DNA of 64,000 nt from Clostridiaceae bacterium (GTDB lineage Bacteria > Bacillota > Clostridia > Acetivibrionales > DTU013): assembly GCA_039679375.1 (NCBI GenBank), contig JBDKVA010000076.1:2139-66138 (forward strand), in the 5' to 3' direction. How positions within the stretch are numbered: position 1 is the stretch's first letter; every line of letters begins with the position of its first letter. Position numbers and translations under genes: made by a program. The notes under the pieces were generated by a model. That model did no database searches. It was not told where the DNA came from and worked only from the letters and a program-made list of their open reading frames with translations. Positions 17,098 to 53,982 of this stretch are shown in pieces.

Positions 17098-17101
17098 GCA
17101 A

Positions 17102-17789: not shown

Positions 17790-17810
17790 TTTGAGCTTTA
17801 CAAACAGTAT

Positions 17811-17840: not shown

Positions 17841-17842
17841 AC

Positions 17843-17903: not shown

Positions 17904-17938
17904 TTTTTTTCGAACCAATTCAGGCAGATATGCGGATA

Positions 17939-18202
17939 TCAGCCGCCGGAGGAATTATCCGCTGCATTTGTGCCTGCCTCCAGTGCTTCATCCAGAAGCA
18001 ATTCCAGGACAATCTCTTTTTTGATCAGAAGCCTTAAAAATCTTAAAATACTGTCATTGATTGCATTCAGGCTATCAATATCGCCGACAAGTGCAAGAAG
18101 CTTGGTGAGTTTATTGACCTCTACCTGTGTCAGGCTTGCAAGTCCTGCCTCCTGGTTTGCAATAGCCGTAATAAGAGCATTCACATTAGCTGGCAGTGAC
18201 AT
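17939..18202 (-). CDS. Small protein (88 aa) consisting of one copy of the ~65-aa helical domain
   Basis: GAAGGAGG lies 7 nt upstream of ATG (complement 18200-18202, 'MSLPANVNALITAIANQEAGLASLTQVEVNKLTKLL...'). The track ORF start at 18271 would overlap the upstream gene. Confidence 0.7.
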   Translation of the reverse strand: MSLPANVNALITAIANQEAGLASLTQVEVNKLTKLLALVGDIDSLNAINDSILRFLRLLIKKEIVLELLLDEALEAGTNAADNSSGG

Positions 18203-18264
18203 AATATTACCTCCTTCAATTTTGGATTCCAAATGCGACTGCAAATTGAAACGCAACTTGCAGA

Positions 18265-19212: not shown

Positions 19213-19268
19213 ATTACGACCTCCTTATTCATAAAAGTGCAGATGGTGCGATCGTTCACCACCTATCC

Positions 19269-19299
19269 TATATTATGAATATCAAATAAATAAGGTTAC
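19269..19299 (-). promoter_or_regulatory. Putative sigma-K-type promoter
   Basis: Minus strand reads GTAAC, 17-nt spacer, CATAATATA. It shares the GTAACCT -35 context with the site at 17759-17789 and lies ~55 nt upstream of the 19212 start. Confidence 0.3.
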
Positions 19300-19317
19300 A
19301 TAATATGTTGCCATTTA

Positions 19318-23769: not shown

Positions 23770-23787
23770 ACTCAGTCCTTTCTGCTT

Positions 23788-25329: not shown

Positions 25330-25398
25330 TAGAGCATGCTGAAGATGCAAAAGGTTGGAAGTCCGGTATTAAATCAAACCGGATACAGGAGGATGGAG

Positions 25399-26527: not shown

Positions 26528-28129
26528 ATGAGCATAGACGTTAAACCAATTAATGTAGGTGCTATGGATTGCTTTGAAAGTATTTTTGCATCCGTACTGG
26601 AATGGAAGAAAATCCATCATGAAATCCTATGGATCAATTCCATAGGATTTGATTTTATAAGGGACGATAATGCTGCAACAGACAAAATTGGCAAGAGAGT
26701 AACTGCAGGTAAAGACATTTTTGAATTCAACAGCTTTGCAAAAGAGTTTTTAAACATATATTGCACGGAGCATTTAAAAAAAGATCCTGATGAGGATTTG
26801 ATCGCAATCACGGGCGAAATATCGGAAGGCCGTCCCGTTATGCTTTTGATCGATCCATTCTGGCTCCCGTGGAAAAAGGAAGCATACGGAGTGCACCATT
26901 TATTGCCGGGACATTCATGTCTTGCTGTCGGAATGGATAATGAAATAATTCATTGCATAGATACTGTACCAAAGATATTGGATGACGCCATTTTACCAAT
27001 AAGTGATTTTAAGCAGGGCTGCAATGCATATATTACGTTTTGCTTTGACAATAGCATACCGTTGCGGTTGTTGCGTGACGATCTATTAGACATGATGATT
27101 GGCAACCTGAAATATTCTTCGTATTATACGGACTCTTTTCGTGCTATGAGGGAATTTGGCAGATGTGTGAATGAATTGCCCGATTATTCATTAGAGACGG
27201 CAGGCTATACGGAACATACCTTCTGGCTGGCTCCTATAATAAATAGCAGCGACAGGATTTTTAGATCATATGGCAAATTTTCAATGCTGGTAGAATTTCT
27301 TAATACACAATATCATATGGATATACCATCAACGGTGCCGGAGCTTATTGAACGTGGAGAACTGATATGGAATACGGTTTTGGGTCTTTTCACAAAAGCA
27401 TTTTTTTCTCCCGGGAAAGCGAAAGCAATTTTAACCAGGACGTCAGCAAAAATTATCGAAGCAGCAGACACTGCGGAAGAGATATGCAATGAATTACAGA
27501 AATTTAGAAATAATGATTATACCTCCATGTCAGCAGCGCATGAAAAAAACAGTCCCCAAAAGGGCAGGAGTATAAAAGATGTAACCTTCATCAATTTAAC
27601 GGACCATTTTAATAATAAAGGCTTCGGCAGAGGAATTTCACCGGATAACAGAGCGGACCTGAACGGGTTCGGATATTACCTTCTATCAGACGGCATCCCT
27701 GATGATATATGGGCGGTACAGGAAATAAAATATCAGCTTCCTGATTTATTTACTGATGATAATGACAATATATCCTGCGACAATCAAGTCGTTGATATCC
27801 GGCCGGGACGCTACAATGGCATTTCTATACTTGGATGCGCAGAGGCAAGAAATCAAGGGGGCTTTTTGAATATATTTTATTCAGACGGGAGCAGTGATGA
27901 AATAATTGTAAAATTCACAGATTGGTGCGCCAAACCGCTTTTTGGAGAAACGGTAGCATGGACTGGTTTACGGGTATGCAAATACGAAGGGAAAGCAACA
28001 GTCTGCGAAGAAAAAGCTAATTTATTGATTCAGCAGTATGAGATCAATCACAACAAAACAGTTGTAAAAATAGTATTGCCGGACTGCTGGAATCTTCATA
28101 TTTTTGCAATATCGCTGTTCAGATATTGA
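26528..28129 (+). CDS. Free-standing BtrH-like (papain-fold Cys/His) protein with an additional ~190-aa beta-rich C-terminal domain
   Basis: 533 aa. The N-terminal 'GAMDCFESIFASVL' (Cys15), 'EGRPVMLLIDPFWLPW' and 'GHSCLAVGMD' align in order and spacing with the C-terminal domain of the last megasynthase (59690-60720). The C-terminal domain is not recognised. Confidence 0.55.
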   Translation: MSIDVKPINVGAMDCFESIFASVLEWKKIHHEILWINSIGFDFIRDDNAATDKIGKRVTAGKDIFEFNSFAKEFLNIYCTEHLKKDPDEDLIAITGEISEGRPVMLLIDPFWLPWKKEAYGVHHLLPGHSCLAVGMDNEIIHCIDTVPKILDDAILPISDFKQGCNAYITFCFDNSIPLRLLRDDLLDMMIGNLKYSSYYTDSFRAMREFGRCVNELPDYSLETAGYTEHTFWLAPIINSSDRIFRSYGKFSMLVEFLNTQYHMDIPSTVPELIERGELIWNTVLGLFTKAFFSPGKAKAILTRTSAKIIEAADTAEEICNELQKFRNNDYTSMSAAHEKNSPQKGRSIKDVTFINLTDHFNNKGFGRGISPDNRADLNGFGYYLLSDGIPDDIWAVQEIKYQLPDLFTDDNDNISCDNQVVDIRPGRYNGISILGCAEARNQGGFLNIFYSDGSSDEIIVKFTDWCAKPLFGETVAWTGLRVCKYEGKATVCEEKANLLIQQYEINHNKTVVKIVLPDCWNLHIFAISLFRY

Positions 28130-28241: not shown

Positions 28242-28270
28242 TTGACTTTTTTAAAGATTATAAATATAAT
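28242..28270 (+). promoter_or_regulatory. Near-consensus sigma-A promoter in front of the PKS/NRPS operon
   Basis: TTGACT, 17-nt spacer, TATAAT, 46 nt upstream of the thioesterase start. It sits in an A+T-rich 186-nt gap. Confidence 0.55.
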
Positions 28271-28315: not shown

Positions 28316-29056
28316 ATGAGGGGATCCGAACATTTGTCAAGTATAATAAAGTTATTCTGTTTCCCCTATGCAGGCGGTTCAGCATCCGTATACGGTAAAC
28401 TGAAACAGTATTTGGATAAAAATATTGAAATCGTACCTATTGAGTATACCGGAAGAGGAAAAAGGATAAATGAGAAGTTCTATACCGATATTTCCGGTGC
28501 AATCGACGATATTTATGAAGTGATCCGCAAACATATTAATGGTCATGAGTTTGCATTTTTAGGTCACAGCATGGGATGCGTCATTGCTTATGAAATTTGC
28601 AAAAGAGTAAGGGAGGATTGCGGAAGGGAACCGGCGCACATTTTTGTATCGGGAAGATATCCGCCGCACGTCAGGAAGAAGAGTACCATTTTACATACTC
28701 TCCCAAACGACAGGTTTAAAAATGAAATTATGAAAATAGGAGGTACTCCGAAAGAAATATTTGAAAATGAAGAATTGTCACAAATTTTTATTCCCATACT
28801 GAAGGCTGATTATAGGTTGGTAGAGCTTTATGAATTTCAGGATGAGAATGTAAGATTCAACTCCGGGATCACCGTATTAAGCGGTAAGGATGACAAAATA
28901 GTTGAAAAGGATGAATTATATGAATGGCAAAAGTATTCATTCTATGCAATAGATTTATATGAATTTGACGGCGGACATTTTTTTATCAACAACTATGTTA
29001 AGGAAATAGCGGAGATCATTAATCATTCACTAGACGTTCGTTCTATACCGGTATAA
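28316..29056 (+). CDS. Type II (editing) thioesterase
   Basis: 246 aa with 'FCFPYAGGSASVY', nucleophile elbow 'GHSMG', and 'GKDD' / 'GGHFF' at the C-terminus. Confidence 0.9.
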   Translation: MRGSEHLSSIIKLFCFPYAGGSASVYGKLKQYLDKNIEIVPIEYTGRGKRINEKFYTDISGAIDDIYEVIRKHINGHEFAFLGHSMGCVIAYEICKRVREDCGREPAHIFVSGRYPPHVRKKSTILHTLPNDRFKNEIMKIGGTPKEIFENEELSQIFIPILKADYRLVELYEFQDENVRFNSGITVLSGKDDKIVEKDELYEWQKYSFYAIDLYEFDGGHFFINNYVKEIAEIINHSLDVRSIPV

Positions 29057-29082: not shown

Positions 29083-31059
29083 ATGAACATGCTCGATAGT
29101 GGAATGTCGACGACCGTTTTTTTAGTTTCGGGTGCATTTATACTTGTAACAATATTTCATCTCTTCATACTTCTTAAAGAGATCGTGACGAAGCAGCGCA
29201 GTTTTCGAACGAAAGGGATAAAAGATGCTGGTACTGTTCTATTTTCTTTCGCACTTATCGGCGCGATTTTTTATTGCCTCTACAAGGCTCCGTTTGCGTT
29301 GTTTTACGGAACAACATGGGAAATGATTGATGAATTCGGACCTTCACTACTTATTAAAGTAGCTGTTTGCATGGTTTTTGTCATCCCATTATTTTATCTG
29401 TATTTTATTCTTTCACACTTCTTTGTTAAGAAAAATGGCAAGCCCTATTTTTTGATTATTATACTCAGCATATTGAGTGCGTTAGGGAACTCGATGATTA
29501 TTGTAATAATAAATCAGGCGCTAAACAGGGTAATGGGAGATGAAAGCCGCAGGGCCGGGATAGAAAGCGGATTATACCTATACTTCCTGCTGGGTATTGC
29601 GCTTTTTACAGTAAGCGCAATGATCGTCAGAAAAAAGTTAATTGTCATTACAAGCCAGATGGTTTACGAAAAGCGGGTAGAGATTATCGACAGGTTAATG
29701 AACGCTCCCTATGAAAAATTTGAAGCGATGGAAGACGGCAAGATACATGCCGCCCTTAATAATGACACCGAAGCAGTCAGCGGGTTTGTTAATGCATTAG
29801 TCAATGGATTGACCGGAGTTATTACATTAATTACATGCTTCATCTATTTGGGAACAATCAACCTGTTAGGAATGCTTTTCTCAATTTTAATGATATGCGT
29901 TGCCGTAGGACTATTCCTTTCTGTCAGTGACAAAGCGGAAAAGAAGTTTGAAGAGAACAGAGATATACAAAATCATTTTTTCAGGTTTATTAATGATATG
30001 GTAAAAGGCTTTAAAGAGCTGTACATAAATAAAAAGAAGTGCCGTGAATTCACGGATGATATTCAAAAAAGCTGCCTGGATTACCGGGATTCACGCGTCG
30101 AAGGGGAGTTCAGCTTTGTCGGAGTCTCAATATTGGGGGAAATACTTTATATCCTGGTAGTCGGTATTGTCGTGTTTATTTTCCCGTTGATATTTCCGAA
30201 TCTGGAGAACACCAGACTAAACAACTATGTTCTTGTATATTTATACATGGGCGGGATCGTAAATCAGGAAATTTACCTGGTGCCGGGAATCATGCGGGTG
30301 CTGGTCAGCTGGAGAAGGATAAATCAATTTATAAATGAGCTTTCATCCCAGAATCCTGCAAACCGCCATACTTCTGCTCCTTTAAACAACAAGGCTGCTT
30401 TGGATATAAGCTTGAAAGACGTCAGGTTCCAATACAAAAATGAAACCGGAGAAAACTTCTCTGTAGGTCCTCTCAATTGCAACTTCAAATCAGGAGAAAT
30501 TGTTTTCATATCCGGTGGAAACGGGAGCGGCAAATCAACTCTGGTCAAGCTGCTGACAGGTCTTTACAGACCTGATGAAGGCAATATTACCATAAATGGA
30601 CTTCCTGTTGATACAGAAACTCTCGGGAGCTGCTTCTCAACTGTTTTCAGTGATTTTTTTCTTTTTGACAAAATGTATGGCATCGACTATGAAAGGAAAA
30701 CTGCGGAAATCAGTCACTACCTGGATGTGCTGCGTATCCGGGATAAAGTCCGGATATGCGACGGAGTATTCAGCACAGTTAAGCTTTCTACCGGACAGAG
30801 GAAAAGGCTGGCTCTTTTGATCAGTTATCTGGAGGACCGCCCTGCTTATGTTTTTGATGAATGGGCGGCAGATCAGGATCCGGAATACAGGAACTTCTTT
30901 TACAGGGCATTGCTGCCCGAACTGAAGGCAAGAGGCAAGGCGGTTGTTGCCATAACGCATGACGACCGCTATTTCAGTGAAGCGGATATACATATAAAGA
31001 TGGAAACAGGTCAGATCATCAGCTGTGTAAGGAATCACGCACAAGCTGTGACTGCATGA
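29083..31059 (+). CDS. Cyclic-peptide-type ABC exporter (SyrD/YojI-like fused TMD-NBD) with an N-terminal extension
   Basis: 658 aa. Walker A 'GGNGSGKST', signature 'LSTGQRKRL', Walker B 'YVFDEWAADQD'. About 110 extra N-terminal residues carry about 3 additional hydrophobic helices. Confidence 0.85.
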   Translation: MNMLDSGMSTTVFLVSGAFILVTIFHLFILLKEIVTKQRSFRTKGIKDAGTVLFSFALIGAIFYCLYKAPFALFYGTTWEMIDEFGPSLLIKVAVCMVFVIPLFYLYFILSHFFVKKNGKPYFLIIILSILSALGNSMIIVIINQALNRVMGDESRRAGIESGLYLYFLLGIALFTVSAMIVRKKLIVITSQMVYEKRVEIIDRLMNAPYEKFEAMEDGKIHAALNNDTEAVSGFVNALVNGLTGVITLITCFIYLGTINLLGMLFSILMICVAVGLFLSVSDKAEKKFEENRDIQNHFFRFINDMVKGFKELYINKKKCREFTDDIQKSCLDYRDSRVEGEFSFVGVSILGEILYILVVGIVVFIFPLIFPNLENTRLNNYVLVYLYMGGIVNQEIYLVPGIMRVLVSWRRINQFINELSSQNPANRHTSAPLNNKAALDISLKDVRFQYKNETGENFSVGPLNCNFKSGEIVFISGGNGSGKSTLVKLLTGLYRPDEGNITINGLPVDTETLGSCFSTVFSDFFLFDKMYGIDYERKTAEISHYLDVLRIRDKVRICDGVFSTVKLSTGQRKRLALLISYLEDRPAYVFDEWAADQDPEYRNFFYRALLPELKARGKAVVAITHDDRYFSEADIHIKMETGQIISCVRNHAQAVTA

Positions 31060-32414
31060 ATAAAAAGACGGGAAAGCAGCTTAGATCAATAAAAAGTGGG
31101 GTTCATGGAATGATAAAGAGGTTTTTTACAGTTTGCCTGCTATCCATATTTCTGCTCCAATCAGGATGCAGCAGTGTGATATCCGTTCCTTCCGCACCGG
31201 TCGGCAGCTACAGCGTCGATGGGGTAAGCATTACGGATAAAGGTAATTACTTTAGTGTTGTACTTGATTTTACCACCGGTCTGACACACAGGCAGGTCGG
31301 AGAAGCTTATGCAAAGGGAATACTGCAGTTGGTGCCCGACTATGAAGCACTTGTTGATTCATACATTGCTGAAAATATTATTCATTCCGATTACAAACCC
31401 GCTTTTAACCGTATAGAGGACATTAAACCCGGTATAAATGATGATTTTATAGAAGAGATCGATGCAATGGCGTCAGTTTTGTCCGGTGGCGGGAATGATT
31501 TGAGAAGAGATGGAAAAGTGTCGCGAAATGAATTTTATCTCTTTAACCTGTTCACAGATGTAGTTCGTGGTACCCAATGCAGTTATATCTCGGTTTTCGG
31601 AACGCGTTCCGCAACGAAAAAAACGATCACGGGAAGGAACCTGGATTGGTACGGAGGCAGCAGGAACCAGCTTCCAAGGCTCCAGGCAGTAATTACCCAC
31701 CTTTATCCTGACAAAAAGGTATGTTCTATCGGTTACATGGGTTTTATGGGAGTTATTACAGGTTTTAATGACAGCAGGATTTTCGCGGGTATCCTTGATT
31801 CAGGTACAAATGCGGCATATACATCCGAAGGAAGGCGCTCCTATGTTTTTGATCTGAGATATGCGCTGGAGAATATGAGAACGATGGATGATGCGGCGGA
31901 ATTTATGAGAGATCCCTCAAAGCTTTATACATATAACCATATCATCGGGTTTTCCGATCCGGACAGGAGCATTATTCTGGAAAATAATTTCAGCGGGAGC
32001 GGATCGGACGGGAACAGAGTAAAACGCGCAATAAGAGAGAGCGATTCCGGGCTGAACAAAAATATAACCTGGGGGATCAGTAATGCCGCAGCTGCAGTAA
32101 ATTCCTTTGTGCTTTACGGTAATCATGATAATCATACACCCAATAAATATAATACGAAAAGGTGGTCAAATATTAAAACACAATTGCAGAATGAAGGCTC
32201 AGAGGTATCCTCCGAGAAAATGAAGAGGATCATTTCCTATAACCGCGGCAAACCGGGCAACTTTTCCGAGAGCGGCGATATTTATAATAAAATGACTTTG
32301 CAAATGATCGTATTTCAGCCGGATACCCTGTCGCTTGAGATTTATTTTCGTCCGAAGGGTAACAGGATCAACCCGGTTCAACCTGTTTTTGAAAAGATTG
32401 AGGTTTTTGAGTAA
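31056..32414 (+). CDS. Secreted or lipid-anchored Ntn-hydrolase-like protein (peptidase C45 / acyl-CoA:6-APA acyltransferase-like)
   Basis: 452 aa; 4-nt overlap with the exporter gene. Signal/lipobox-like 'FTVCLLSIFLLQSGCSS'. 'GTQCSYISVFG...ITGRNLDWYGG' resembles the self-processing Gly/x-Cys nucleophile and the 'GxNxDW' motif of C45/C59 Ntn hydrolases. An alternative start is ATG 31110. Confidence 0.5.
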   Translation: MNKKTGKQLRSIKSGVHGMIKRFFTVCLLSIFLLQSGCSSVISVPSAPVGSYSVDGVSITDKGNYFSVVLDFTTGLTHRQVGEAYAKGILQLVPDYEALVDSYIAENIIHSDYKPAFNRIEDIKPGINDDFIEEIDAMASVLSGGGNDLRRDGKVSRNEFYLFNLFTDVVRGTQCSYISVFGTRSATKKTITGRNLDWYGGSRNQLPRLQAVITHLYPDKKVCSIGYMGFMGVITGFNDSRIFAGILDSGTNAAYTSEGRRSYVFDLRYALENMRTMDDAAEFMRDPSKLYTYNHIIGFSDPDRSIILENNFSGSGSDGNRVKRAIRESDSGLNKNITWGISNAAAAVNSFVLYGNHDNHTPNKYNTKRWSNIKTQLQNEGSEVSSEKMKRIISYNRGKPGNFSESGDIYNKMTLQMIVFQPDTLSLEIYFRPKGNRINPVQPVFEKIEVFE

Positions 32415-32446: not shown

Positions 32447-35400
32447 ATGTCCCAATATGCTACTCTTGTTGATTTGATCAAGGCGAGAAAAGAAGAGGAA
32501 CAAAAAGGAATAACATTCATTCTCGGCGATAAGGAAGAGCGCTATGTATCATATAAGCAGCTGTACCTGACGTCTTTACGGCTTCTGTATACTCTCCGGC
32601 AATCAGGCTACAGGCAGGGAGACGAGGTCCTGTTTCAAATCGAGGATAACGAGCGCTTTGTTTATTCCTTCTGGGCATGCATTCTTGGCGGTATGATACC
32701 TGTACCCGTATCTACAGGCAATAACGATGAACACAAGCTGAAGCTGTTTAAAATATGGGGTAAACTGAAGAATCCAAGAGTGATCATATCAGCCGAGTTC
32801 CTGAACAAAATGGAAGCATTCGCCGAAAAAAACGGATTAAGCGCTCAAATGGAGGCTGTCAGGAACAGCGCGACGTTTATTGAGGATGCCATTCAGACAG
32901 AGATGTATGGGGATATTTGCCGCCCCGACCCGGAAGATATTGTACTGATCCAATTTTCATCGGGCTCCACAGGCGACCCGAAAGGTGTGATCATTACACA
33001 TGGAAATGTTCTGACAGATTTGAACGCAGTGATCCGGTGGGAGCATATCGGCATGAACGACGCCGGACTTAACTGGATGCCTCTTACGCATGACATGGGG
33101 TTGATCGGCACGCACATAAAAGGGATCATGGCATGCATAAACCAATTCAATATCCAGACACAGCTGTTTATAAGGCATCCCTCCCTATGGATCGAAAAAG
33201 CCAGCGAGCATAAGGCTACCTTGCTGTACTCGCCTAATTTCGGATATAAACATTTTCTGAAGTTCTATAATCCTGAAGCAATGAAGGAATGGGATTTGTC
33301 AAGCGTACGTCTGATTTTCAACGGGGCTGAGCCGATATCTCTCGACCTCTGCAATGAATTTCTGGACAAGATGGCTGTCTATGGTCTAAAGAGGAATGCC
33401 ATGCATCCCGTATACGGCCTGGCGGAAGGTACCATTGCCGTTGCCTTCCCGAATGACGGCGAAGAATTATTGTTCCACACGCTTGACAGAAACCATCTTA
33501 GGATCGGAGAAACAGTAGTCGACTTATCGAATGAAAATAAGAATTCCATTGTTTTTTTGGACGAGGGTTATCCGATTTACAATAGCTTTGTCCGCATCTG
33601 TGATGAAGAAAATCATGATATAGGCGAAAACAGGGTGGGCTGCATTCAGATATCGGGAGGAAATGTCACTTCGGGATACTATAATGACATTCAGGCTACA
33701 AAAGAGGCTATAACACCCGATGGATGGCTGAAAACCGGCGACCTTGGCTTCATGAGGAACAGAAGGCTTACCATCACCGGGCGTTCAAAGGATGTTATTT
33801 TTGCAGCCGGGCAGAATTTTTATTCCCATGATATCGAGCGCGTCTGTGAATCGGTTGATGGCATGGAACTTGGCAAAATAGCGGCAGCGGGAGTATTCAA
33901 TGACCGCCTGGGATGTGATGAACTGATTCTTTTCGTCATGTACAGGCAAAAGCTTGAATCCTTTATTCCTGTTGCAGCAAGCCTGCGGAATGCGATCAGC
34001 CGGAAAATGGGTATTGAGGCCACGGAGATCATACCGGTAAAAAATATCCCCAAAACAACGAGTGGAAAGCTTCAACGGTATAAATTGCGTGAGGAATACA
34101 TAAATGGGGAGTATGACTTCATCAAGCAGCAAATGCATGCTTTACTGGAAGAAGATTTTAAAAGAAGGGAAATTGTTCCGCCTGCTAATCCCATCCAGGA
34201 AGAGCTGGTTAAAATATGGTCGGAGGTTCTGAACATTGAGCGGATAGGTATCCGGGACAATTTCTTTGATTTGGGAGGGGATTCCTTACGGATTACCCAA
34301 ATCGCTTCCAGAATTAGAGATCGTTTTCAAGTCGATTTGAATCAGGCAGCGCTTTTTGAAAATACTGATATACAAAAGCTTGCAGAGGTGGTGGAAAATG
34401 CGGCTTGCAAGCGGAAAGACACGTCTGGTGAGATCCGTACGGCAGCGTGTTTAAGTGAAAGGGCTCCCCTTTCCTTTGCGCAGCAAAGGCTATGGTTTCT
34501 TGACCGCCTGCATTTGCAAAGCCCCCAGTATAATCTGTATACGGGGTTTATTTTGAAAGGCATCCTGAATAGGGAGGTACTGCAAAAGAGCCTTAATAGT
34601 ATCATGAAGCGGCATAAAATATTGCAGTCCTATTTTATTGAAGAAAACGGTAAACCTGTGCAGATGCTGGACCAGGAAGCTATAATGCCACTGAAGTATG
34701 TCGACTTGAGGAACATACCGGAAGCGGACAGGAGGACAAAAGCCGAGGATCTGGCAAAAATGGAAGCGGGAAAGTCCTTTGACCTTGAAAAGCCTCCGCT
34801 TATCAGAGGCAGGCTGATCTGCACCGGTGATGCGGAGCATATGCTGATTTTAGCGGTACATCACATCGTTTTTGACGGATGGTCTTTCGGAATACTCCTG
34901 CATGATCTGAATCTATTTTATGAAGCGCTTCTGAATGGAGAGGAGCAAACGCTGTCTGAGCCGGATATACAATATGCTGATTTTTCCAGGTGGCAGAATG
35001 AAAATGAATGGCCAGGATATTTGAACGGGCAGCTTGCATATTGGAGGAAGCAGCTTGAAGGCCGCTTGCCCGTATTGGATTTGCCGCTCGACAATCCAAG
35101 GCCTCCGGTCCAAACCTACAATGGAGCAAGGTTTACATGCGGCATTCCGGCGGAACTGGTGAATAAGCTGCAGAAATATGCAAGGAAAGAGAATGCAACA
35201 TTGTTCATGGTGCTGCTGGCGGCATTTAAAACTCTTCTATGCAGGTATTCAGGCCAATCGGACATCATTGTAGGCTCGCCCATAGCTAATAGAAACCGGA
35301 AAGATATTGAGGGCTTGATTGGATTTTTCACCAACAATATTATCCTGCGCACCCGCTTTTCAAATAAGATCGTGTTTAGCGAGCTTTTAGCAAAGGTGAG

Positions 35401-38400
35401 GCAGGTAACCGTCGAAGCCTATACGAATCAGGATGTTCCGTTTGAAAAGCTTGTCGGGGAGCTGCATGCGGAACGGGATATGAGCAGGAATCCATTGTTT
35501 CAGGTACTGTTCGGAATGCAGAATGCGCCTGTACCGAAAATGGAATTTTCCGAACTGAATGTCTCAATACTGGAACTGGATGCAGGATATTCAAGGTTTG
35601 ACCTGTCTGTTGATATCCGTGATGCCGGAGATAGATTATTCGCTGATTTCGAGTACAATACTGATCTCTTTAGTGAAGACACAATTTCAAGAATGGCAGG
35701 CCATTACCGGCAGTTGCTTTCGTGTATTGCATATAATCCTAATTTGCCGTTGGACAGCTATGAAATAATGACGGCGGGGGAAAAGAAAACTATACTTTAT
35801 AAATGGAATGATACAAAGAAAGATATAAATGCCTGTTCCAACTGGACCGAGCTTTTTGAAAGGCAAGCGGCGGCATCGCCGGATGCTGTTGCAGCGGTTT
35901 GCGGGAAACAGCAGGTAACTTACTCCGAGCTGGATGAACGCTCCAATCGCCTGGCTCATTACCTGCATTCGGCCGGGGTGGGACCGGAGACCGTTGTAGG
36001 AGTTTATACCGACCGTTCTATTGATATGCTTGCAGTGCTTATTGGGATACATAAAACAGGAGCTGCCTATTTGCCGATGGATCCCATTTTCCCAAAGGAG
36101 CGCCTTGCCTATATCATTGAAGATGCAAATGTTGGTTTGATCTTATCGGAAAAGAAGCTGTCCGGTACTCTTCCCCGCCATAATGCCAGGGTTGTCAGCC
36201 TGGATTCCGAGTGGGACATTATTTCCGGATATAGCGCCGCCAGAATTGATGTTAATAAAAATTCCCGCGATCTTGCCTATGTGATATATACCTCGGGTTC
36301 TACAGGCAAGCCGAAGGGTGTTCTGATCGAGCAGCATTCATTGATAAATTTTCTGTTATCTATGGCTGAAAAGACCGGCGTAAAAAAGAAGGATTCTTTG
36401 CTGGCTGTTACGACATTATCCTTTGATATTGCAGGTCTGGAGCTTTATATGCCTCTGATTTGCGGCGCCCGGGTCGTGATCGCCCAAAGGGATGATGTTT
36501 CTGACGGCAGCAGACTGGAACGGCTGCTGCATGAGCAGGGTATTTCCATAATGCAGGCGACGCCTGCAACATGGAGGCTTCTCATAGAGTCGGGATGGAC
36601 CGGCTGCAGCGGCCTGAAGGTATTATGCGGCGGTGAAGCACTGTCCCAGGATCTTGCCGGTCAGCTTTTGGACAGATGTTCTGCTCTGTTTAACGTATAC
36701 GGTCCGACGGAAACTACAATATGGTCGACGATAGAACGCGTAGAATCCGGGAGCGGAATGGTATCCATCGGCAGGCCGATTGCAAATACGCAGGTGTATG
36801 TGGTGGATGATTCCATGAACCCCGTCCCCGCAGGAGTACCCGGTGAACTGCTTATTGGCGGTGACGGGCTGGCGCGGGGATATATGAACCTGCCCGATCT
36901 GACCGGCGAGAAATTTATTCCTGACCGGTTTGGTAAAAAACACGGTGCGCTGCTCTACAGAACGGGGGACACCGTCAGGTTCATACAGGATGGAAAGCTT
37001 GAATTTATGGGCCGTAAGGACAATCAGGTAAAAATCAGGGGATATAGGATCGAGCTTGGGGAAATCGAAAATTTGATAAATCAGGAGCCGTCCGTAAAGG
37101 AAAGCGTTGTTGCCGCAAGGGAGCTTATTCCGGGAGAAAAGGCCCTGGTAGCGTATATCATACCCTCTAGGGAAAAAGGTGGGGATATCAGCATCGAACA
37201 CATGCGTAAAAACCTGGCGGACAAGCTGCCGGCTTATATGATACCATCCTCCTATATGGTAATGGATTTCTTCCCAATGACGCCAAATGGCAAAATTGAC
37301 AGAAAAGCTTTACCTTTACCTCAAAGCGCAAGTATAAAGCTGGGTGTAAATTATATAGCACCGTCAAGTGAAATAGAAAAGCAGCTTGTTTCAATTTGGA
37401 AGGAAGTCTTGAAAACAGATGCAGTCGGCTTGAACCAAAATTTCTTTGATTCGGGAGGGCATTCGCTGTTGTTGGCCCAGGTGAGGAGCAGGATCGGGAG
37501 TGCCTTAAAAAAGGATGTCTCTATGATGGACCTGTTCAAATACCCCACAATAGCTGCGTTATCAGGTTTTCTCTCGGAGGACGGCAAGCTTGCGGCAGGG
37601 ACGGGATCCGCTGCAATGACTGGGGCTGGACACGCTGATACGCAAGAAGGTGGGAAAATGTGCGAAAAAGTAGCAGTGATAGGGCTCAGCGGCAGATTCC
37701 CGGGTGCGGATGATATAGAGCAATTCTGGAATAATCTTTGCAGCGGAGTTGAGTCCATATCACGGTTTTCAGATGAGCAGGTATCAGGAGAAGGCATTGA
37801 TGCGGATATGCTGAGGAAACCCGGCTATGTAAAGGCGTGGGGAGCACTTGACGGTATAGACAGATTTGATGCCGGATTCTTTGAGTACAACCCAAGGGAG
37901 GCGGAAATCCTTGATCCGCAGCAAAGGGTATTTCTGGAGGAATCATGGAAGGCTCTGGAGAATGCAGGTTATGATGTGGAGAAATTTAACGGCCTGGTGG
38001 GAGTATTTGCAAGCGTAGGCATGAATACCTACGCACAAAGGCTGAAGGACAGTTATGCTTCAAATGGCCTGGCAAGCGATTATCAGATCATGGTCGGCAA
38101 TGATAAGGATTTTCTTGCGACACGCATTGCCTATAAGCTAAACCTTGAAGGTCCCGGCATTACTGTTCAGACAGCATGCTCTTCATCACTGGTAGCCGTT
38201 CATCTGGCATGCCGGAGCCTGATCAGCAGGGAATGCGATATGGCACTGGCAGGCGGCGTTAGCATCAGACTGCCGCAACAAGCCGGATATCTGTATCAGG
38301 AAGGAATGATCCTGTCCCCTGACGGCCATTGCAGAGCTTTTGACGAGCAGGCGCAGGGTACTGTGGGAGGCAACGGCGCAGGCGTTGTAGTATTAAAACG

Positions 38401-41400
38401 CCTTGACGACGCCATTTCGGACGGAGATGATATAAGCGCCGTCATTCTCGGAACAGCGGTCAATAATGACGGAGCAATGAAAGTGGGATATACGGCGCCG
38501 CGTATCGGCGGGCAGGCAAAGGCGGTCGCGAAAGCGCAGGCAAAGGCAGGAGTTGAGCCCGAATCAATAACATACATTGAAGCGCATGGGACAGGAACTC
38601 CTCTTGGTGATCCGATAGAGATAGAGGCGCTGACGCAAGTCTTCAGGGAAAAGACAGAGAAAAAGGAGTACTGTGCGATCGGTTCGGTGAAAACGAATAT
38701 AGGGCATCTGGATGCGGCGGCGGGCGTAACGGGGCTGATCAAAACCGTGTTATCGCTGCGTAACAGGATGATACCTCCGAGCTTGAATTTTACAAAACCC
38801 AATCCAAAAATAAAATTCAGTGAAAGCCCGTTTTACGTAAACCGCTCGCTGACCGGCTGGAGTAATGCATCAGGTCCGCTCAGAGCAGGGGTGAGTTCCT
38901 TCGGGATCGGAGGGACAAACGCACATGCCGTACTGGAAGAAGGACCGGCAATAAAAAGTGATGAAAATACAGGCAGGCCTTTATTATTCATATTATCAGC
39001 CAAAAGCAAAAAAGCCCTGGAGAGCATGACGGCAAATTTCATCCGCTTTTTGGAAAACAACAGCGCCGTTAACCTTGCGGACGTTGCATATACGCTGCAG
39101 CTCGGGCGCAAGGAGTTTGAATACAGGAGGTTCTTCGTAAGCGCGACCGTTCAGGAAGCTTTGGAGGCACTGAGAAATAACGCCGGTCAGCAAAAATATG
39201 ACGGTCGGCAAAATAACAAAGGGGGGTCCGGGGATTATCCATTGGAGCAGATCGGACAAATGTGGCTGAACGGCGACAGCATAGATTGGGTAAAGCTTTA
39301 TAAAGGACAGAAGAGAAAACGTATTCCCCTTCCGGTATATCCCTTTGAAGGTCAATCCTATTGGGCAAAAAAAGCCATGCCTGTAAAGATGGAGCAGCCT
39401 GCGGCAATGATAACCGGAAGGGCTGACATTTCCGGGTGGTTTTATACGCCGGTATGGAAGCAGTCAGTTGAGAGCAGCGGCAGTCCCGACCCGGGAAGCT
39501 TCAGAAAAGGAGTCATTCTTATTTTGATGGATCGCTGCGGTTTTTCTGAGGCTTTTTCCGTCCATTTGAAGCAAAGGTACATAAATACGGTTGTAGCTAC
39601 AACATATGAAGAATATAGACAGGCAGATCAGCATCGCTATCTTTTTAATCCGGCGGATCCTGCGCATTATGACCGGTTAATCGGCGATCTGGCGAAAAAA
39701 GGGGAAACGCCTGAGATGATTGTAAATATGCTTGGAATAGATACAGATACACATGAAGTGAGTGCACAAGATGGTTTATATTTTGGAGAGAGGTTGTTTT
39801 TCAGTATGATGTATCTGGCGCAAGCCGCAGGCAGGAATGCCATGAATACGCCGATACAGCTTAAAGTGCTGGCAAACCGCTCTCAAAAGATATTGAGCGG
39901 CGAGACGATCTCTCCTGAAAAAGCGCTTCATCTCGGGGCTTGCAGAGTTATACCCAGAGAGTATCCGAATATCAGGTGCTGCAGCATTGATTGCGTATTG
40001 CCGGAAACAGGAGGCATACAGGAGCAGGAACTGTATGATCTGCTTGCGGACGAAATTTGCTTCATGCCCTGTGAAGGGCTGATCGCATATCGAGGAATGG
40101 AAAGGTGGAAACAGGAGTACGAAAGATTTAGTCCCAATGAGAAAAACCGCCGGACCGTCAAGCTTAAGAATAACGGCGTGTATATCATAACAGGGGGTTT
40201 GGGCGGGATCGGGCTTGAAACGGCCGGTTACATTGCAAATAAAACGCATACAGCGATAATTCTGCTGGGGCGGTCCTGGTTTCCTGACGCCTCGCAGTGG
40301 GAACAATGGCTGGAAACGCACAGCAAAAAGGATGTGATATCGCGCAGGATAAAGCGGCTGAAAGAGATACAGAAAACCGGTGCTGAGCTGTTTATATGCC
40401 GTGCGGATGTTTCCGACCGCGATCAGCTGAGGAATATCCGTGACGAAGTGATAAAGAGGTATGGGAAAATAGATGGGATCATACATGCCGCAGGCATTCC
40501 CGGAGGCGGTATGATTCAGCTTAAAAAGAAGGAAGATGCAAAGAAGGTCCTGACGCCAAAAGTAAAGGGGACACTGGCCTTATTTGATACATTCGTGGAT
40601 TGCCGCCTTGATTTCATGGTATTTTACTCATCGCTTAACGCCGTTACAGGCGGCTTCGGGCAGATTGATTACAGCGCTGCGAATGCATTTCTTGATGCTT
40701 TTGCCCTAGTACACGACAGCCATAAAGGCACCAGGTTCATATCGATTGATTGGGACAGATGGGCGGGAATCGGTATGGCATCCGGGATACTGCCGGGCAT
40801 GGACGATAAAACAGAGGATGTGCATCCGCTTTTAGGCAGATGTTTGAATGAACGTGAGGATACCGTCATTTTCTTAATAGAAATAAGCCCCGAAAAGAAC
40901 TGGGTGTTATCAGAGCATCTGGTGCTCGGCATACCTACGGTTGCCGGTACGACTTATCTTGAAATGGCCAGAGCTGCTTTGGAGGAGTTGACCGGAAGCA
41001 GTAAAGCTGAAATTACCGATGTGTTGTTTTTATATCCGCTGGCGGTTAAACCGGGAGAAAAACGGAATGTCTTCACCTTCATGATGAAAAATGGGAACGC
41101 CTACGATTTCAGGATTATCAGCAAGGCCGGCGGCGAAGATAATGAAAATGCAAACTGGCTGGAGCATATACGAGGGAAGATTGCGCCATTTGATAATGAA
41201 AGAGGCGGTGTCTTCACTCTCCAGGATCTAAAAGAGAAGTATGGCGCTGAAACGATATATTCTGACGGCGGACAGTATAAGCTTTCCGAAGAATTTATCA
41301 GCTTCGGCGGCAGGTGGAGGTCGCTCAGAAGCTTTACATGCAGTAATGACGGCGGATTGGTTGTAGTCCGGCTGGAGGATGAATTCATAAAAGATCTTGA

Positions 41401-42337
41401 AAGCTGCCCTCTCCATCCGGCGCTGCTGGATATCGCTACCGGCGCTGTCAGGTTTGCGGCGGGAGGCAATTATCTGCCGTTCTCATACGGAAATTTAAAA
41501 ATATATGAGCTGCTGCCGGGCACGATTTACTGTCATATAAAATTTGCGGACAGAAGCGGTTTATCCGGGGAGATCATAACATGCGACATCGATATCATAG
41601 GAGAAAACGGAGCGCGGTTGCTGGAGATTAAAGATTTCTCCATGAAACTGGTTAGTGAGGCGTCTGCAGATAATTTCAGAAGACGGACCCGTTCCGATTC
41701 AAAACAGGTTGAGGCTGACTCCGTAATGAAGCTTGCCGAGCAGATTCCGCAAGGAATGAAGAGATCAGTGCAGGAAGGCATTAGCGCATCAGAAGGAACG
41801 GAAGCTTTGCACCGCATCATCAACGGATGCTTCAGGCCTCAGATCATCGTCTCTGCCAGAGACATGCGTGATGCCATGGAGAATGCGGATTACATAAGCC
41901 GGTCCGGTCTGAAGGATGCGTTTATCGAGGCTGCAGTTTCAAATGACAGGCATCCGAGACCTGAATTGGAAAATGATTATGCGCCTCCCAGGAATGAGAC
42001 GGAAAAGAAACTGGCTGAACTATGGCAGGATGTTCTTGGTATAGATAAGGTTGGCATTCATGATGAGTTTTTTGCTCTCGGCGGAGATTCATTATTGCTG
42101 ATACAGTTCCATACGAAGCTAAAAGAAGCCGTTACAAGTGAAATTGCGGTCGTGGACCTGTATAAATACAACACGATCGCACTGCTTGCAAAACGGATCA
42201 AAAATGAATGTGAGGAAGAAGAACAGCCGGCCTTTGAGAAAGTAAACAGCAGGGTCAACAGGCAGCTGGAGCTGATGAAAAAAAGAAGACGGCAGATGTC
42301 AGGAGATAAAGGAGCGGGTTCAGATGAATCATATTGA
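32447..42337 (+). CDS. Hybrid NRPS/PKS, 3296 aa: FAAL-ACP-C-A(Gly)-T-KS-[linker]-KR-DH-ACP
   Basis: FAAL/AMP-ligase core 'FSSGSTGDPKGV' (32954-32989). ACP 'GGDSL' (Ser 34283-85). C 'HHIVFDG' (34859-79). A 'YTSGSTGKPKGV'. T 'GGHSL' (Ser 37463-65). KS 'TACSSS' (Cys 38177-79), 'EAHGTGT', 'NIGHL'. No AT domain. KR 'GGLGGIG' (~40190). DH 'HPLLG', 'EHLVLGIPTVAG' (His 40916-18), 'HPALLD'. ACP 'GGDSL' (Ser 42089-91). Confidence 0.9.
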   Translation: MSQYATLVDLIKARKEEEQKGITFILGDKEERYVSYKQLYLTSLRLLYTLRQSGYRQGDEVLFQIEDNERFVYSFWACILGGMIPVPVSTGNNDEHKLKLFKIWGKLKNPRVIISAEFLNKMEAFAEKNGLSAQMEAVRNSATFIEDAIQTEMYGDICRPDPEDIVLIQFSSGSTGDPKGVIITHGNVLTDLNAVIRWEHIGMNDAGLNWMPLTHDMGLIGTHIKGIMACINQFNIQTQLFIRHPSLWIEKASEHKATLLYSPNFGYKHFLKFYNPEAMKEWDLSSVRLIFNGAEPISLDLCNEFLDKMAVYGLKRNAMHPVYGLAEGTIAVAFPNDGEELLFHTLDRNHLRIGETVVDLSNENKNSIVFLDEGYPIYNSFVRICDEENHDIGENRVGCIQISGGNVTSGYYNDIQATKEAITPDGWLKTGDLGFMRNRRLTITGRSKDVIFAAGQNFYSHDIERVCESVDGMELGKIAAAGVFNDRLGCDELILFVMYRQKLESFIPVAASLRNAISRKMGIEATEIIPVKNIPKTTSGKLQRYKLREEYINGEYDFIKQQMHALLEEDFKRREIVPPANPIQEELVKIWSEVLNIERIGIRDNFFDLGGDSLRITQIASRIRDRFQVDLNQAALFENTDIQKLAEVVENAACKRKDTSGEIRTAACLSERAPLSFAQQRLWFLDRLHLQSPQYNLYTGFILKGILNREVLQKSLNSIMKRHKILQSYFIEENGKPVQMLDQEAIMPLKYVDLRNIPEADRRTKAEDLAKMEAGKSFDLEKPPLIRGRLICTGDAEHMLILAVHHIVFDGWSFGILLHDLNLFYEALLNGEEQTLSEPDIQYADFSRWQNENEWPGYLNGQLAYWRKQLEGRLPVLDLPLDNPRPPVQTYNGARFTCGIPAELVNKLQKYARKENATLFMVLLAAFKTLLCRYSGQSDIIVGSPIANRNRKDIEGLIGFFTNNIILRTRFSNKIVFSELLAKVRQVTVEAYTNQDVPFEKLVGELHAERDMSRNPLFQVLFGMQNAPVPKMEFSELNVSILELDAGYSRFDLSVDIRDAGDRLFADFEYNTDLFSEDTISRMAGHYRQLLSCIAYNPNLPLDSYEIMTAGEKKTILYKWNDTKKDINACSNWTELFERQAAASPDAVAAVCGKQQVTYSELDERSNRLAHYLHSAGVGPETVVGVYTDRSIDMLAVLIGIHKTGAAYLPMDPIFPKERLAYIIEDANVGLILSEKKLSGTLPRHNARVVSLDSEWDIISGYSAARIDVNKNSRDLAYVIYTSGSTGKPKGVLIEQHSLINFLLSMAEKTGVKKKDSLLAVTTLSFDIAGLELYMPLICGARVVIAQRDDVSDGSRLERLLHEQGISIMQATPATWRLLIESGWTGCSGLKVLCGGEALSQDLAGQLLDRCSALFNVYGPTETTIWSTIERVESGSGMVSIGRPIANTQVYVVDDSMNPVPAGVPGELLIGGDGLARGYMNLPDLTGEKFIPDRFGKKHGALLYRTGDTVRFIQDGKLEFMGRKDNQVKIRGYRIELGEIENLINQEPSVKESVVAARELIPGEKALVAYIIPSREKGGDISIEHMRKNLADKLPAYMIPSSYMVMDFFPMTPNGKIDRKALPLPQSASIKLGVNYIAPSSEIEKQLVSIWKEVLKTDAVGLNQNFFDSGGHSLLLAQVRSRIGSALKKDVSMMDLFKYPTIAALSGFLSEDGKLAAGTGSAAMTGAGHADTQEGGKMCEKVAVIGLSGRFPGADDIEQFWNNLCSGVESISRFSDEQVSGEGIDADMLRKPGYVKAWGALDGIDRFDAGFFEYNPREAEILDPQQRVFLEESWKALENAGYDVEKFNGLVGVFASVGMNTYAQRLKDSYASNGLASDYQIMVGNDKDFLATRIAYKLNLEGPGITVQTACSSSLVAVHLACRSLISRECDMALAGGVSIRLPQQAGYLYQEGMILSPDGHCRAFDEQAQGTVGGNGAGVVVLKRLDDAISDGDDISAVILGTAVNNDGAMKVGYTAPRIGGQAKAVAKAQAKAGVEPESITYIEAHGTGTPLGDPIEIEALTQVFREKTEKKEYCAIGSVKTNIGHLDAAAGVTGLIKTVLSLRNRMIPPSLNFTKPNPKIKFSESPFYVNRSLTGWSNASGPLRAGVSSFGIGGTNAHAVLEEGPAIKSDENTGRPLLFILSAKSKKALESMTANFIRFLENNSAVNLADVAYTLQLGRKEFEYRRFFVSATVQEALEALRNNAGQQKYDGRQNNKGGSGDYPLEQIGQMWLNGDSIDWVKLYKGQKRKRIPLPVYPFEGQSYWAKKAMPVKMEQPAAMITGRADISGWFYTPVWKQSVESSGSPDPGSFRKGVILILMDRCGFSEAFSVHLKQRYINTVVATTYEEYRQADQHRYLFNPADPAHYDRLIGDLAKKGETPEMIVNMLGIDTDTHEVSAQDGLYFGERLFFSMMYLAQAAGRNAMNTPIQLKVLANRSQKILSGETISPEKALHLGACRVIPREYPNIRCCSIDCVLPETGGIQEQELYDLLADEICFMPCEGLIAYRGMERWKQEYERFSPNEKNRRTVKLKNNGVYIITGGLGGIGLETAGYIANKTHTAIILLGRSWFPDASQWEQWLETHSKKDVISRRIKRLKEIQKTGAELFICRADVSDRDQLRNIRDEVIKRYGKIDGIIHAAGIPGGGMIQLKKKEDAKKVLTPKVKGTLALFDTFVDCRLDFMVFYSSLNAVTGGFGQIDYSAANAFLDAFALVHDSHKGTRFISIDWDRWAGIGMASGILPGMDDKTEDVHPLLGRCLNEREDTVIFLIEISPEKNWVLSEHLVLGIPTVAGTTYLEMARAALEELTGSSKAEITDVLFLYPLAVKPGEKRNVFTFMMKNGNAYDFRIISKAGGEDNENANWLEHIRGKIAPFDNERGGVFTLQDLKEKYGAETIYSDGGQYKLSEEFISFGGRWRSLRSFTCSNDGGLVVVRLEDEFIKDLESCPLHPALLDIATGAVRFAAGGNYLPFSYGNLKIYELLPGTIYCHIKFADRSGLSGEIITCDIDIIGENGARLLEIKDFSMKLVSEASADNFRRRTRSDSKQVEADSVMKLAEQIPQGMKRSVQEGISASEGTEALHRIINGCFRPQIIVSARDMRDAMENADYISRSGLKDAFIEAAVSNDRHPRPELENDYAPPRNETEKKLAELWQDVLGIDKVGIHDEFFALGGDSLLLIQFHTKLKEAVTSEIAVVDLYKYNTIALLAKRIKNECEEEEQPAFEKVNSRVNRQLELMKKRRRQMSGDKGAGSDESY

Positions 42338-45300: not shown

Positions 45301-45398
45301 TTGAGACATGGAAGTGGGCTGCGGAAAGCCTCGGTGAATCGGCGGCAAGCCATAATGGATCGGCTGCCGGCCAGGATTACGATGGAGGGACGATTTAA
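42324..45398 (+). CDS. PKS module, 1024 aa: KS - degenerate AT remnant - ACP
   Basis: 14-nt overlap with the upstream gene. KS 'LCSSSVVAVHYA' (Cys 42870-72), 'DAHGTGT', 'NIGHL'. The AT-like region (~43900-44520) has 'GGDAGE' (44208-44225) where GHSxGE is expected. 'YPFERQRYW' follows. ACP 'GGHSL' (Ser 45192-94). Confidence 0.9.
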   Translation: MNHIDENNPVGSIAIIGMTGRFPGAKDMEGFWENLCNGVESVRFFGREELVRMGISEQLLDNPRFVPADAILDGMDEFDASFFDYSAREAEIMDPQHRLFLESAWEVLESAGYNSELYDGRVAVYGSANLSGYMIRNLYSNPGLVDTVGSFKIMLANGQDFLATKVSYKMNLMGPSVNVNTLCSSSVVAVHYACQNLMSYGCDLALAGGVSFQVSRSDAFFYQEGGIGSSDGHCHAFDSKASGTVSGSGLAVVVLKRLEDAVADGDHILAVIRGIGINNDGSSKNSYTAPNADGQAECIAEAIAMSGVNPETITYIDAHGTGTDLGDPIEIAALTKAFRAYTRKRQFCAIGSVKTNIGHLVNAGGLASLVKTVLSLQHGVLPSSLNFAEPNPKIDFENSPFYVNTRLTKWEADGYPRRAGVSSFGIGGTNTHVILEEAPEQDAPEASKRPFHLIMLSAKTGTALEKMTGNLLEFVRMNPQMNIADLAFTLQVGRRNFNHRRFLVCSDANDLREKLESMSGQYVFSRFQKPKELSVAFIFPANACHVNMGPELYRTESGFRSAVDKCANILRNLTGLDIRKVLYPAEEDKEQAVKQLQNRNVGRGVLFTVEYALARLWMSWGIEPQNMLGGDAGEYVAACLAGVLDIEDALKLAVSKDGELPECVSGLNFGRMKLPFVSSVTGRPVSDPEAGNAQYWIRQRIAARFMDGMQELLKAPDQIIIEMGPGIKFTADTPGYWRTDDDNAMLSCMPGSGEDTSEAETILNCAGKLWLAGGKPDWRRLYPDEKRRRIPLPTYPFERQRYWIEPGTRGDQKPGMIIERKEEITNEIIHSGIKEGTITLTVDLDADHSGEDPGNRKNQLDELLAFRRRLEELGREFPGIYPGLKVSGIGLKTGSQYGSHESADNGKLKKRPRPDLETAYAAPRNELERAIIEKWQEVLGFDTIGVNDDFFELGGHSLIAAAVATELSKKFQVQIPMRTLFETTTAAGIAKLIETWKWAAESLGESAASHNGSAAGQDYDGGTI

Positions 45399-45474
45399 AC
45401 ATCCGGTATTTGCATAAACAATCGGGCCTGTTTCAGAAATCCGGCTCAGAAGGGCCGGGGCCGTAAAGGTATGT

Positions 45475-52670: not shown

Positions 52671-52699
52671 TAATAAATTAACACAAGTTTACGGGAGGT

Positions 52700-53965: not shown

Positions 53966-53982
53966 AAACTGTGCCTTAACTT

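Follow-up and report, generated by a model that had tools for sequence, protein, structure and literature searches.

The stretch of DNA analyzed here (the window: 64,000 nucleotides (nt) of contig JBDKVA010000076.1 from a Clostridiaceae bacterium, assembly GCA_039679375.1) contains a gene of the C45 family that is located between an ABC exporter gene and the first megasynthase gene of a hybrid assembly line. This line combines nonribosomal peptide synthetase (NRPS) and trans-acyltransferase (trans-AT) polyketide synthase (PKS) modules and begins with a fatty acyl-AMP ligase (FAAL). A first-pass annotation of the window had proposed that the C45 gene is translationally coupled to the exporter and encodes an exported lipoprotein resembling N-terminal nucleophile (Ntn) hydrolases, which might deacylate a lipidated precursor outside the cell. 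Here, we have established the family, fold, conserved nucleophile and signal peptide of this protein, as well as its conserved and dedicated linkage to the cluster. The open reading frame (ORF), the motifs and the signal peptide described in that annotation are all present in the sequence. The features of the C45 gene and its two immediate neighbors are as follows.

29083..31059, + strand: ABC exporter with fused permease and ATPase (TIGR01194, 356.4 bits vs 286.2; Pfam ABC_membrane and ABC_tran)
31056..32414, + strand: longest ORF of the C45-family gene, 452 amino acids (aa); its first ATG overlaps the exporter stop as ATGA
31110..32414, + strand: most likely C45 coding sequence, 434 aa, start at M19, with GGGG 8 nt upstream and 50 nt past the exporter stop
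31110..31166, + strand: signal peptide MIKRFFTVCLLSIFLLQSG, a positive n-region followed by a hydrophobic h-region; helix 14-38 in the structural model
31167..31169, + strand: Cys38, putative lipidated +1 Cys of an atypical lipobox, [F/L]-Q-x-[G/A]-C
31167..31577, + strand: predicted alpha-subunit/pro-region C38-Q174, mostly helical with a small sheet in the model, matching residues 1-102 of isopenicillin-N acyltransferase (IAT)
31569..31601, + strand: motif GTQCSYISVFG, residues 172-182, predicted processing site and first beta-strand
31578..31580, + strand: Cys175, predicted N-terminal nucleophile after Gln174/Cys175 autoproteolysis, conserved in 121/121 homologues and opening strand 174-180
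31632..31649, + strand: motif GRNLDW, residues 193-198; R194 and D197 match GQNWDF of IAT (D121)
31983..31988, + strand: invariant Asn310-Asn311 (ENN; 121/121), candidate oxyanion-hole region by analogy
32034..32036, + strand: invariant Arg327 (121/121), with a presumed functional role
32447..42337, + strand: megasynthase 1, 3296 aa, FAAL-ACP-C-A(Gly)-T-KS-KR-DH-ACP (Pfam), A-domain code DIL(Q/A)LGVIWK, starting 32 nt past the C45 stop

The protein matched the NCBIfam model NF040521 (C45_proenzyme, named 'acyltransferase/hydrolase' in NCBIfam) with 193.3 bits (E = 6.5e-57, cut-off 85) over residues 77-426, covering profile positions 3-312 of 313, and its orthologues already carry the NCBI label 'C45 family autoproteolytic acyltransferase/hydrolase'. 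An AlphaFold2 model built from a 24-sequence alignment (pLDDT 88.4, pTM 0.86) predicted the alpha-beta-beta-alpha Ntn fold, closest to that of IAT. When this model was compared with PDB by Foldseek, the top four matches were IAT chains, both precursor and mature (E = 3.7e-13 to 7e-12, TM(target) 0.72-0.73), the best single match being the IAT precursor 2x1c (E = 3.7e-13, TM 0.72). They were followed by NAAA (6dxw), acid ceramidase (5u84), PLBD2, cephalosporin acylase, bile-salt hydrolase (BSH) and penicillin V acylase (PVA). The precursors of NAAA and acid ceramidase reached E values of about 1e-11 (TM 0.67-0.76), while BSH and PVA matched at TM 0.44-0.48 and the cephalosporin acylases only weakly (TM(target) 0.32-0.35). 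Most of these proteins are Ntn hydrolases that split acyl amides, several of them lipid amides.

Kinship to IAT is visible solely via the fold and profile alignment. When the family profile was aligned by hhalign with the single IAT sequence (identical to PDB 2X1D chain A), Cys175 fell on the IAT nucleophile Cys103; the probability of 2.2% is low because the template is one sequence, and the alignment was used for register only. This register is backed by its agreement with the fold match and by four motifs common to the C45 protein and IAT (EEIDAMAS/EEIRGIAK, GRNLDW/GQNWDF, GFN/GFN and LRYALE/LRIALE, respectively). Among the 121 aligned homologues, C175, W198, N310, N311 and R327 were invariant, which argues that the motifs are not due to chance; R194 was present in 120, and position 197 was Asp in 116 and Glu in 5. 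A Cys is therefore conserved at the position of the IAT nucleophile Cys103 in every aligned homologue. The earlier suggestion of a C45/C59 resemblance holds for C45, in view of the profile match, the predicted fold and the conserved Cys, but not for C59, since no CBAH or NAAA family was found among the Pfam matches at E <= 1 and an alpha-region of 136 residues precedes the Cys. No match to the penicillin-amidase family was detected in Pfam or NCBIfam either. In the model, residues 39-173 are mostly helical and are followed by strand 174-180, which begins with Cys175. Such a layout fits a precursor whose self-cleavage yields a catalytic beta-chain and an alpha-chain that stays anchored, and the alpha-region would bear the lipid anchor afterwards. 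Judged by sequence and model, the gene encodes a genuine Cys-Ntn proenzyme of the C45 family, for which autoprocessing is predicted.

The coding status of the C45 ORF is clear, with homologues down to E = 3.5e-288. A total of 216 clusters (50% identity) matched the protein at E <= 1e-30, and the whole family is small, comprising 516 clusters at 50% identity and E <= 1e-3 among 1.84 billion representatives. In the longest ORF, ATG 31056-31058 overlaps TGA 31057-31059 of the exporter ORF 29083..31059, the arrangement from which translational coupling had been concluded. However, comparative start-codon analysis across 30 related loci placed the start at the counterpart of M19 (ATG 31110), with a Shine-Dalgarno-like GGGG or GGAG(G) 5-10 nt before it. 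One of these genes (L006) has an in-frame stop immediately 5' of this Met, and the gene call in a 99%-identical metagenomic relative (P0001) begins at the same position. On these grounds, we do not accept that the ATGA overlap in the window indicates translational coupling; the claim is probably wrong here, and the overlap is probably a by-product of choosing the longest ORF, the true gap to the exporter stop probably being 50 nt. In orthologues where the exporter directly precedes the C45 gene, the distance from exporter stop to C45 start ranged from -4 to +66 nt, including a genuine 4-nt overlap at the conserved Met in L012, L014 and L034. The gap was 104 nt in L008, and a type II thioesterase (TEII) gene lies in between in the cis-AT type of cluster described below. 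Tight operonic linkage of the exporter and C45 genes is thus real and conserved by sequence comparison, although the overlap in the window is doubtful.

With M19 as the start, the N-terminus of the protein is MIKRFFTVCLLSIFLLQSG, followed by Cys38. A hydrophobic signal sequence followed by [G/A/S]-Cys was found in 98-100 of the 121 homologues; Cys38 itself, with G, A or S at position -1, was kept in 100 of them, and the remaining homologues carry ordinary signal peptides. Because N-terminal signal sequences occur throughout the family, and members from Bacteroidota and Ignavibacteriota have a C-terminal sorting domain of the type IX secretion system (T9SS), the family is extracytoplasmic on the basis of sequence, as the first-pass annotation had supposed for the window protein. 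Lipidation is likely for the clade to which this protein belongs.

To examine the genomic context of the family, we scanned one genome per species and obtained 69 loci with C45 relatives, on which the exporter and the FAAL, C, A and KS domains of the window were mapped. In 28 loci, all from Clostridia, FAAL-ACP-C-A-T-KS was located downstream of the C45 gene, and 25 of these also had a full-length exporter upstream. These 28 represent nearly all loci with at least 50% identity, and the carriers include Ruminiclostridium cellulolyticum, R. papyrosolvens, R. cellobioparum, Acetivibrio, Anaerobacterium and metagenome-assembled genomes (MAGs). The same exporter-C45-FAAL arrangement was observed in R. 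cellulolyticum and two metagenome contigs. These C45 copies formed a single clade in a neighbor-joining tree, and the same Gly-type code was read in all 28 readable first A domains (24 genome loci plus L001-L005).

Within this clade, a second architecture (L029, L030 and L045) has a cis-AT PKS module, a FAAL that is just 28% identical and the gene order exporter-TEII-C45-FAAL, with FAAL-ACP-C-A(Gly)-T-KS-AT-KR-DH downstream (for example, L030:7195-21296). R. cellobioparum subsp. termitidis possesses both architectures, each with its own C45 gene (L013 and L030). In a sister branch (L032), the C45 gene lies between a T-TE terminus and two ABC exporters. Tandem C45 paralogues were identified in two loci (L007:10013-13059 and L018:10001-13020), where a ~125-aa ORF between the copies represents what is left of the exporter C-terminus, and two others (L020:9558-11314 and L040:3473-4951) have an exporter remnant and C45 but no full exporter, L020 being cluster-less. 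It looks as if the exporter and C45 genes duplicate as a unit.

Distant relatives, at no more than 52% identity, were found in Bacteroidota, Ignavibacteriota, Paenibacillus, Obscuribacterales, Spirochaetota and others; they had no thiotemplate genes within 10 kb and no neighbors conserved across phyla. Homologues outside biosynthetic clusters, which the first-pass annotation had taken as a possible sign of a housekeeping role, are thus confined to these distant relatives. The comparison points to a single recruitment of the clade from a wider family of secreted C45 enzymes and indicates that, in the close clade, the C45 gene is dedicated to the pathway and not housekeeping.

Several additional arrangements were observed around these genes. 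A secreted flavodoxin-like lipoprotein is encoded just upstream in the L029, L030 and L045 type. In clusters of the R. cellulolyticum type (L001:2418-7803 and L040), genes for large secreted proteins with copper-amine-oxidase N-terminal (stalk) and TPR domains occupy the position before the exporter that TEII and BtrH_N have in the window, and one C45 homologue (P0100) has a copper-amine-oxidase stalk domain fused at its N-terminus. In Bacteroidota (L061-L069; for example, L061:9257-11215), a metallo-beta-lactamase-fold domain precedes the C45 domain in a fused ORF of ~640-680 aa, with genes for rubrerythrin and an ABC-F ATPase nearby. The latter was not counted as exporter linkage. The combination of two amide/lactone-hydrolase folds in one protein gives a hint that signals or antibiotics might be degraded by it.

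The remainder of the cluster in the window contains the following features.

26528..28129, + strand: free-standing BtrH_N protein, 533 aa, at the upstream cluster edge (Pfam BtrH_N, 30.5 bits)
28242..28270, + strand: best sigma-70-like promoter match, TTGACT-17-TATAAT, just before TEII (consensus match only)
28316..29056, + strand: TEII, first gene of the putative operon (Pfam Thioesterase, 154.9 bits)
42324..60723, + strand: remaining assembly line, KS-ACP; C-A(Ser-type)-T; KS-KR-ACP; free trans-AT; C-A(Gly-type)-T-KS-ACP with a BtrH_N-like end

No gap among the TEII, exporter, C45 and megasynthase genes exceeds 50 nt. Between the starts of TEII and the megasynthase, no terminator-like match was found on the + strand in the intergenic gaps, the sole such match being a weak 5-pair stem (31461-31474) within the C45 gene. 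The exporter belongs to the TIGR01194 'cyclic peptide export ABC transporter' family, which includes SyrD and PvdE. Its TIGR01194 match begins at residue 122, after an extra hydrophobic N-terminal extension of ~120 residues (window 29083-29450). For the first 660 aa of megasynthase 1, the best NCBIfam match was a fatty acyl-AMP ligase (E = 3.1e-97, under the whole-protein cut-off). The A-domain codes, read at GrsA reference positions (a GrsA control returned the canonical Phe code), were DILQLGVIWK (A1, Gly), DVWHFSLIDK (A2, Ser-type) and DILQIGAVWK (A3, Gly-type). The FAAL-ACP-C-A start and the Gly code of its first A domain support the earlier prediction of FAAL-ACP priming with Gly as the first residue.

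The last megasynthase (ORF 53983-60723) ends with an ACP and a papain-like domain similar to BtrH_N/Peptidase_C39_2 (window 59590-60720) and has no thioesterase or reductase; this end domain may be an unusual papain-like off-loading transacylase. The free-standing BtrH_N protein is barely similar to this domain. It is also present in the 99% relative but was absent from the 10 kb upstream of the other loci, and for this reason it was rejected as part of the conserved exporter-C45-FAAL unit. The whole cluster (about 26.5-60.7 kb) lies between a lipoate-protein ligase gene (25336-26472) and gcvT (61456-62565), both of the glycine-cleavage system, which suggests that it was inserted into a glycine-cleavage locus. 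Further upstream, a mostly minus-strand block (15908-24837) encodes two GT4 glycosyltransferases, a UDP-glucose dehydrogenase, an NAD-dependent epimerase, two APH-like kinases and an SdiA-regulated-domain protein, and probably represents a locus for surface polysaccharide that has no relation to the cluster.

What could such an enzyme do? In the reading that we favor, the protein would be exported by the Sec pathway and probably lipidated at Cys38, and would then cleave itself between Gln174 and Cys175 into a membrane-anchored alpha-chain and a catalytic beta-chain with Cys175 as N-terminal nucleophile. Situated on the outer face of the membrane beside the PvdE/SyrD-type exporter, it would act on the exported product of the FAAL-primed NRPS/trans-AT-PKS line and hydrolyze the amide between the fatty acyl group installed by FAAL and the N-terminal glycine-derived unit, yielding a delipidated mature metabolite. 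Being exported, the enzyme can neither act on carrier-protein-bound intermediates nor use CoA thioesters. The acyl-Gly start is the likely target because FAAL-ACP-C-A(Gly) is the sole feature common to all linked assembly lines. Deacylation is favored because the fold relatives split fatty or steroid acyl amides and because the arrangement parallels pyoverdine maturation; BSH, for its part, splits an acyl-glycine amide. Lipidation, autoprocessing, the substrate and the cleaved bond are predictions at this stage, and the deacylation or prodrug role argues from the analogy with PvdQ/PvdE and from gene context. We consider hydrolysis of the N-acyl-glycyl amide after export, following a pyoverdine/PvdQ-like logic, to be a serious candidate with somewhat less than an even chance of being correct. 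The wider idea of a Gram-positive strategy of pyoverdine/colibactin type in cellulolytic clostridia, in which the acyl-glycyl handle would keep the intermediate membrane-bound for the exporter until the surface C45 enzyme removes it, and the freed amine may trigger cyclization or activation, is more tentative, perhaps one chance in three.

Several observations weigh against hydrolysis of the acyl-glycyl amide. Pfam AAT (PF03417) stayed below its gathering threshold (18.1 vs 23.2 bits) with a partial match to residues 189-298, although several homologues have a precomputed PF03417 match. Neither the protein on its own nor a 24-sequence profile revealed a relative in sequence searches of PDB; the sole match returned, Legionella Lem4, was dismissed as spurious. 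The lipobox proposed earlier stands as regards the conserved Cys and the small residue at -1, but position -3 is Gln in 67 of the 100 homologues with Cys38 instead of the canonical Leu of L-[A/S/T]-[G/A]-C, and common lipobox patterns exclude Gln there. To our knowledge, most FAAL-primed lipopeptides retain their lipid, so a FAAL start alone does not imply deacylation. Shared descent of the loading region, and not enzyme specificity, could account for the conserved Gly code. In many phyla, family members are also encoded away from clusters, so that the ancestral substrate is something else. Moreover, hydrolysis is not the sole possible chemistry, since IAT and BSH, both of the same superfamily, also carry out acyl transfer. 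Finally, no experiment or metabolite was found in the literature for this cluster family.

Acyl transfer leads to one of the alternatives, an extracytoplasmic transacylase whose Cys175 thioester would be resolved by an amine or hydroxyl acceptor and not by water, as in IAT, resulting in acyl exchange or in attachment of the acyl group or the peptide-polyketide to a cell-envelope component or a second metabolite. The closest structural relative, IAT, is indeed an acyltransferase, the NCBIfam family name leaves both activities open, and bile-salt hydrolases are generally known to be amine N-acyltransferases as well. However, the extracellular space offers no CoA thioesters, the cluster showed no candidate genes for making an acceptor, and the other top fold matches (NAAA, acid ceramidase, BSH and PVA) are chiefly hydrolases, which makes this alternative improbable in our opinion. 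The enzyme might instead split a different bond of the exported product, such as an internal amide or ester or the one releasing the whole acyl-Gly unit, or act on an environmental N-acyl compound and merely be co-inherited with the exporter. Other substrates must exist for the cluster-free relatives in Bacteroidota, Ignavibacteriota, Paenibacillus, Obscuribacterales and Spirochaetota, the C45 gene of L032 adjoins two ABC exporters and a T-TE end and not a FAAL start, and L020 is a cluster-less copy. On the other hand, the close clade is linked to thiotemplate clusters in a strictly monophyletic manner, and this linkage survives a change of assembly-line type; we regard another bond or substrate as unlikely, though conceivable.

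It is also possible to view the enzyme as a means of self-protection or turnover, in which a surface-anchored hydrolase would inactivate the producer's own membrane-active lipopeptide-polyketide at its membrane and would not catalyze a biosynthetic step, similar to cluster-encoded secreted resistance peptidases and immunity lipoproteins. The same context evidence (cluster linkage, a single clade and retention in the cis-AT type) would support this as well as deacylation; anchoring to the cell, as opposed to free secretion, would suit local protection, and duplications such as the tandem C45 genes of L007 and L018 are common for resistance functions. Nevertheless, no variant has lost the gene, and within the operon it is flanked by the exporter on one side and the first megasynthase on the other, as would be expected of a biosynthetic step; destroying its own exported product would also be costly for the producer. 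Self-protection therefore seems to us quite a small probability.

Comparative support for dedication to the pathway is strong, and the proposed deacylation offers a testable hypothesis about the chemistry itself. We found no paper on the product of this cluster family, the hybrid clusters of R. cellulolyticum and R. papyrosolvens included, and these clusters were listed as cryptic and silent in 2012 (PMC3250452). No report was found of an exported C45 enzyme tied to an exporter and a lipid-loading module. The flavoaffinin cluster, responsible for the yellow cellulose-binding pigments of C. thermocellum (PMC11839114), was considered and is an unlikely counterpart, as flavoaffinins are aryl-polyene lactones with indole and show no apparent fit to acyl-Gly, Ser and Gly modules. 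Clusters of this family occur widely among cellulose-degrading anaerobes, namely Ruminiclostridium, Acetivibrio, Anaerobacterium and a large number of MAGs. If deacylation after export is correct, the lipidated structure predicted from the assembly line would not be the final product, a lipidated precursor and a lighter mature form should be expected in metabolomics, and heterologous expression would have to take in both the exporter and the hydrolase. It would also extend post-export delipidation from the Gram-negative enzymes of PvdQ and ClbP type to another Ntn family in Gram-positives, and give a functional lead for a small, uncharacterized family of secreted C45 proteins. If the wider Gram-positive strategy holds, exported C45 enzymes could also be mined from genomes as a new marker for cryptic 'pro-metabolite' pathways and would form a new class of lipopeptide deacylases, enzymes that are of practical interest for semisynthesis.

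With regard to known systems, the parallel in overall logic is closest to pyoverdine, in which PvdL acylates, PvdE exports and the Ntn hydrolase PvdQ deacylates (PMC6206403), and to the delipidation by PdnM in pandorachelin maturation (PMC13592322). An acyl-ligase-primed NRPS, a TIGR01194-type exporter and an exported Ntn hydrolase are combined in each case, a resemblance of systems and not of family membership. PvdQ is of the penicillin-acylase type, with a Ser nucleophile and an excised spacer in an 18 + 60 kDa heterodimer, and is periplasmic in Gram-negatives, whereas the window protein has a Cys and a different fold subclass and would be surface-anchored in a Gram-positive anaerobe. The S12 peptidases ClbP, XcnG and ZmaM are likewise cluster-encoded, extracytoplasmic and membrane-associated, and remove an N-acyl-amino-acid motif after export; however, their fold is unrelated, their nucleophile is Ser and their motif is N-acyl-D-Asn from a C-A(Asn)-T starter instead of the product of FAAL-ACP-C-A(Gly). 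NAAA and acid ceramidase (C89) and BSH/PVA (C59) are, like the predicted enzyme, Cys-Ntn amidases, which split fatty-acyl or steroid-acyl amides, and BSH has the Cys...R-x-x-D arrangement that is also found in the window protein. BSH and PVA are without a long alpha-region, the C59 Cys coming right after the initiator Met or a short propeptide, in contrast to the 136 residues before the Cys here.

Within the C45 family, IAT (PenDE, MEROPS C45; PDB 2X1C/2X1D) has the same precursor layout, with an alpha-region ahead of the Cys destined to be the N-terminal nucleophile, and is also cluster-encoded and acts on an acyl amide, as is proposed for the window protein. The two are only about 12% identical, and IAT is intracellular (peroxisomal) and uses acyl-CoA, whereas the window protein, about 95 residues longer, carries a signal peptide and probably a lipid anchor and would be cleaved at Gln-Cys instead of Gly-Cys. 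Two bacterial C45 enzymes that are also cluster-encoded, compared by description, are AzsT of azaserine biosynthesis, which hydrolyzes an N-succinyl protecting group in vitro (PMC10445470), and Tri14 of the triacsin pathway; both are cytoplasmic and act on carrier-protein-bound intermediates. It is export that sets the C45 protein of the window apart from IAT, AzsT and Tri14.

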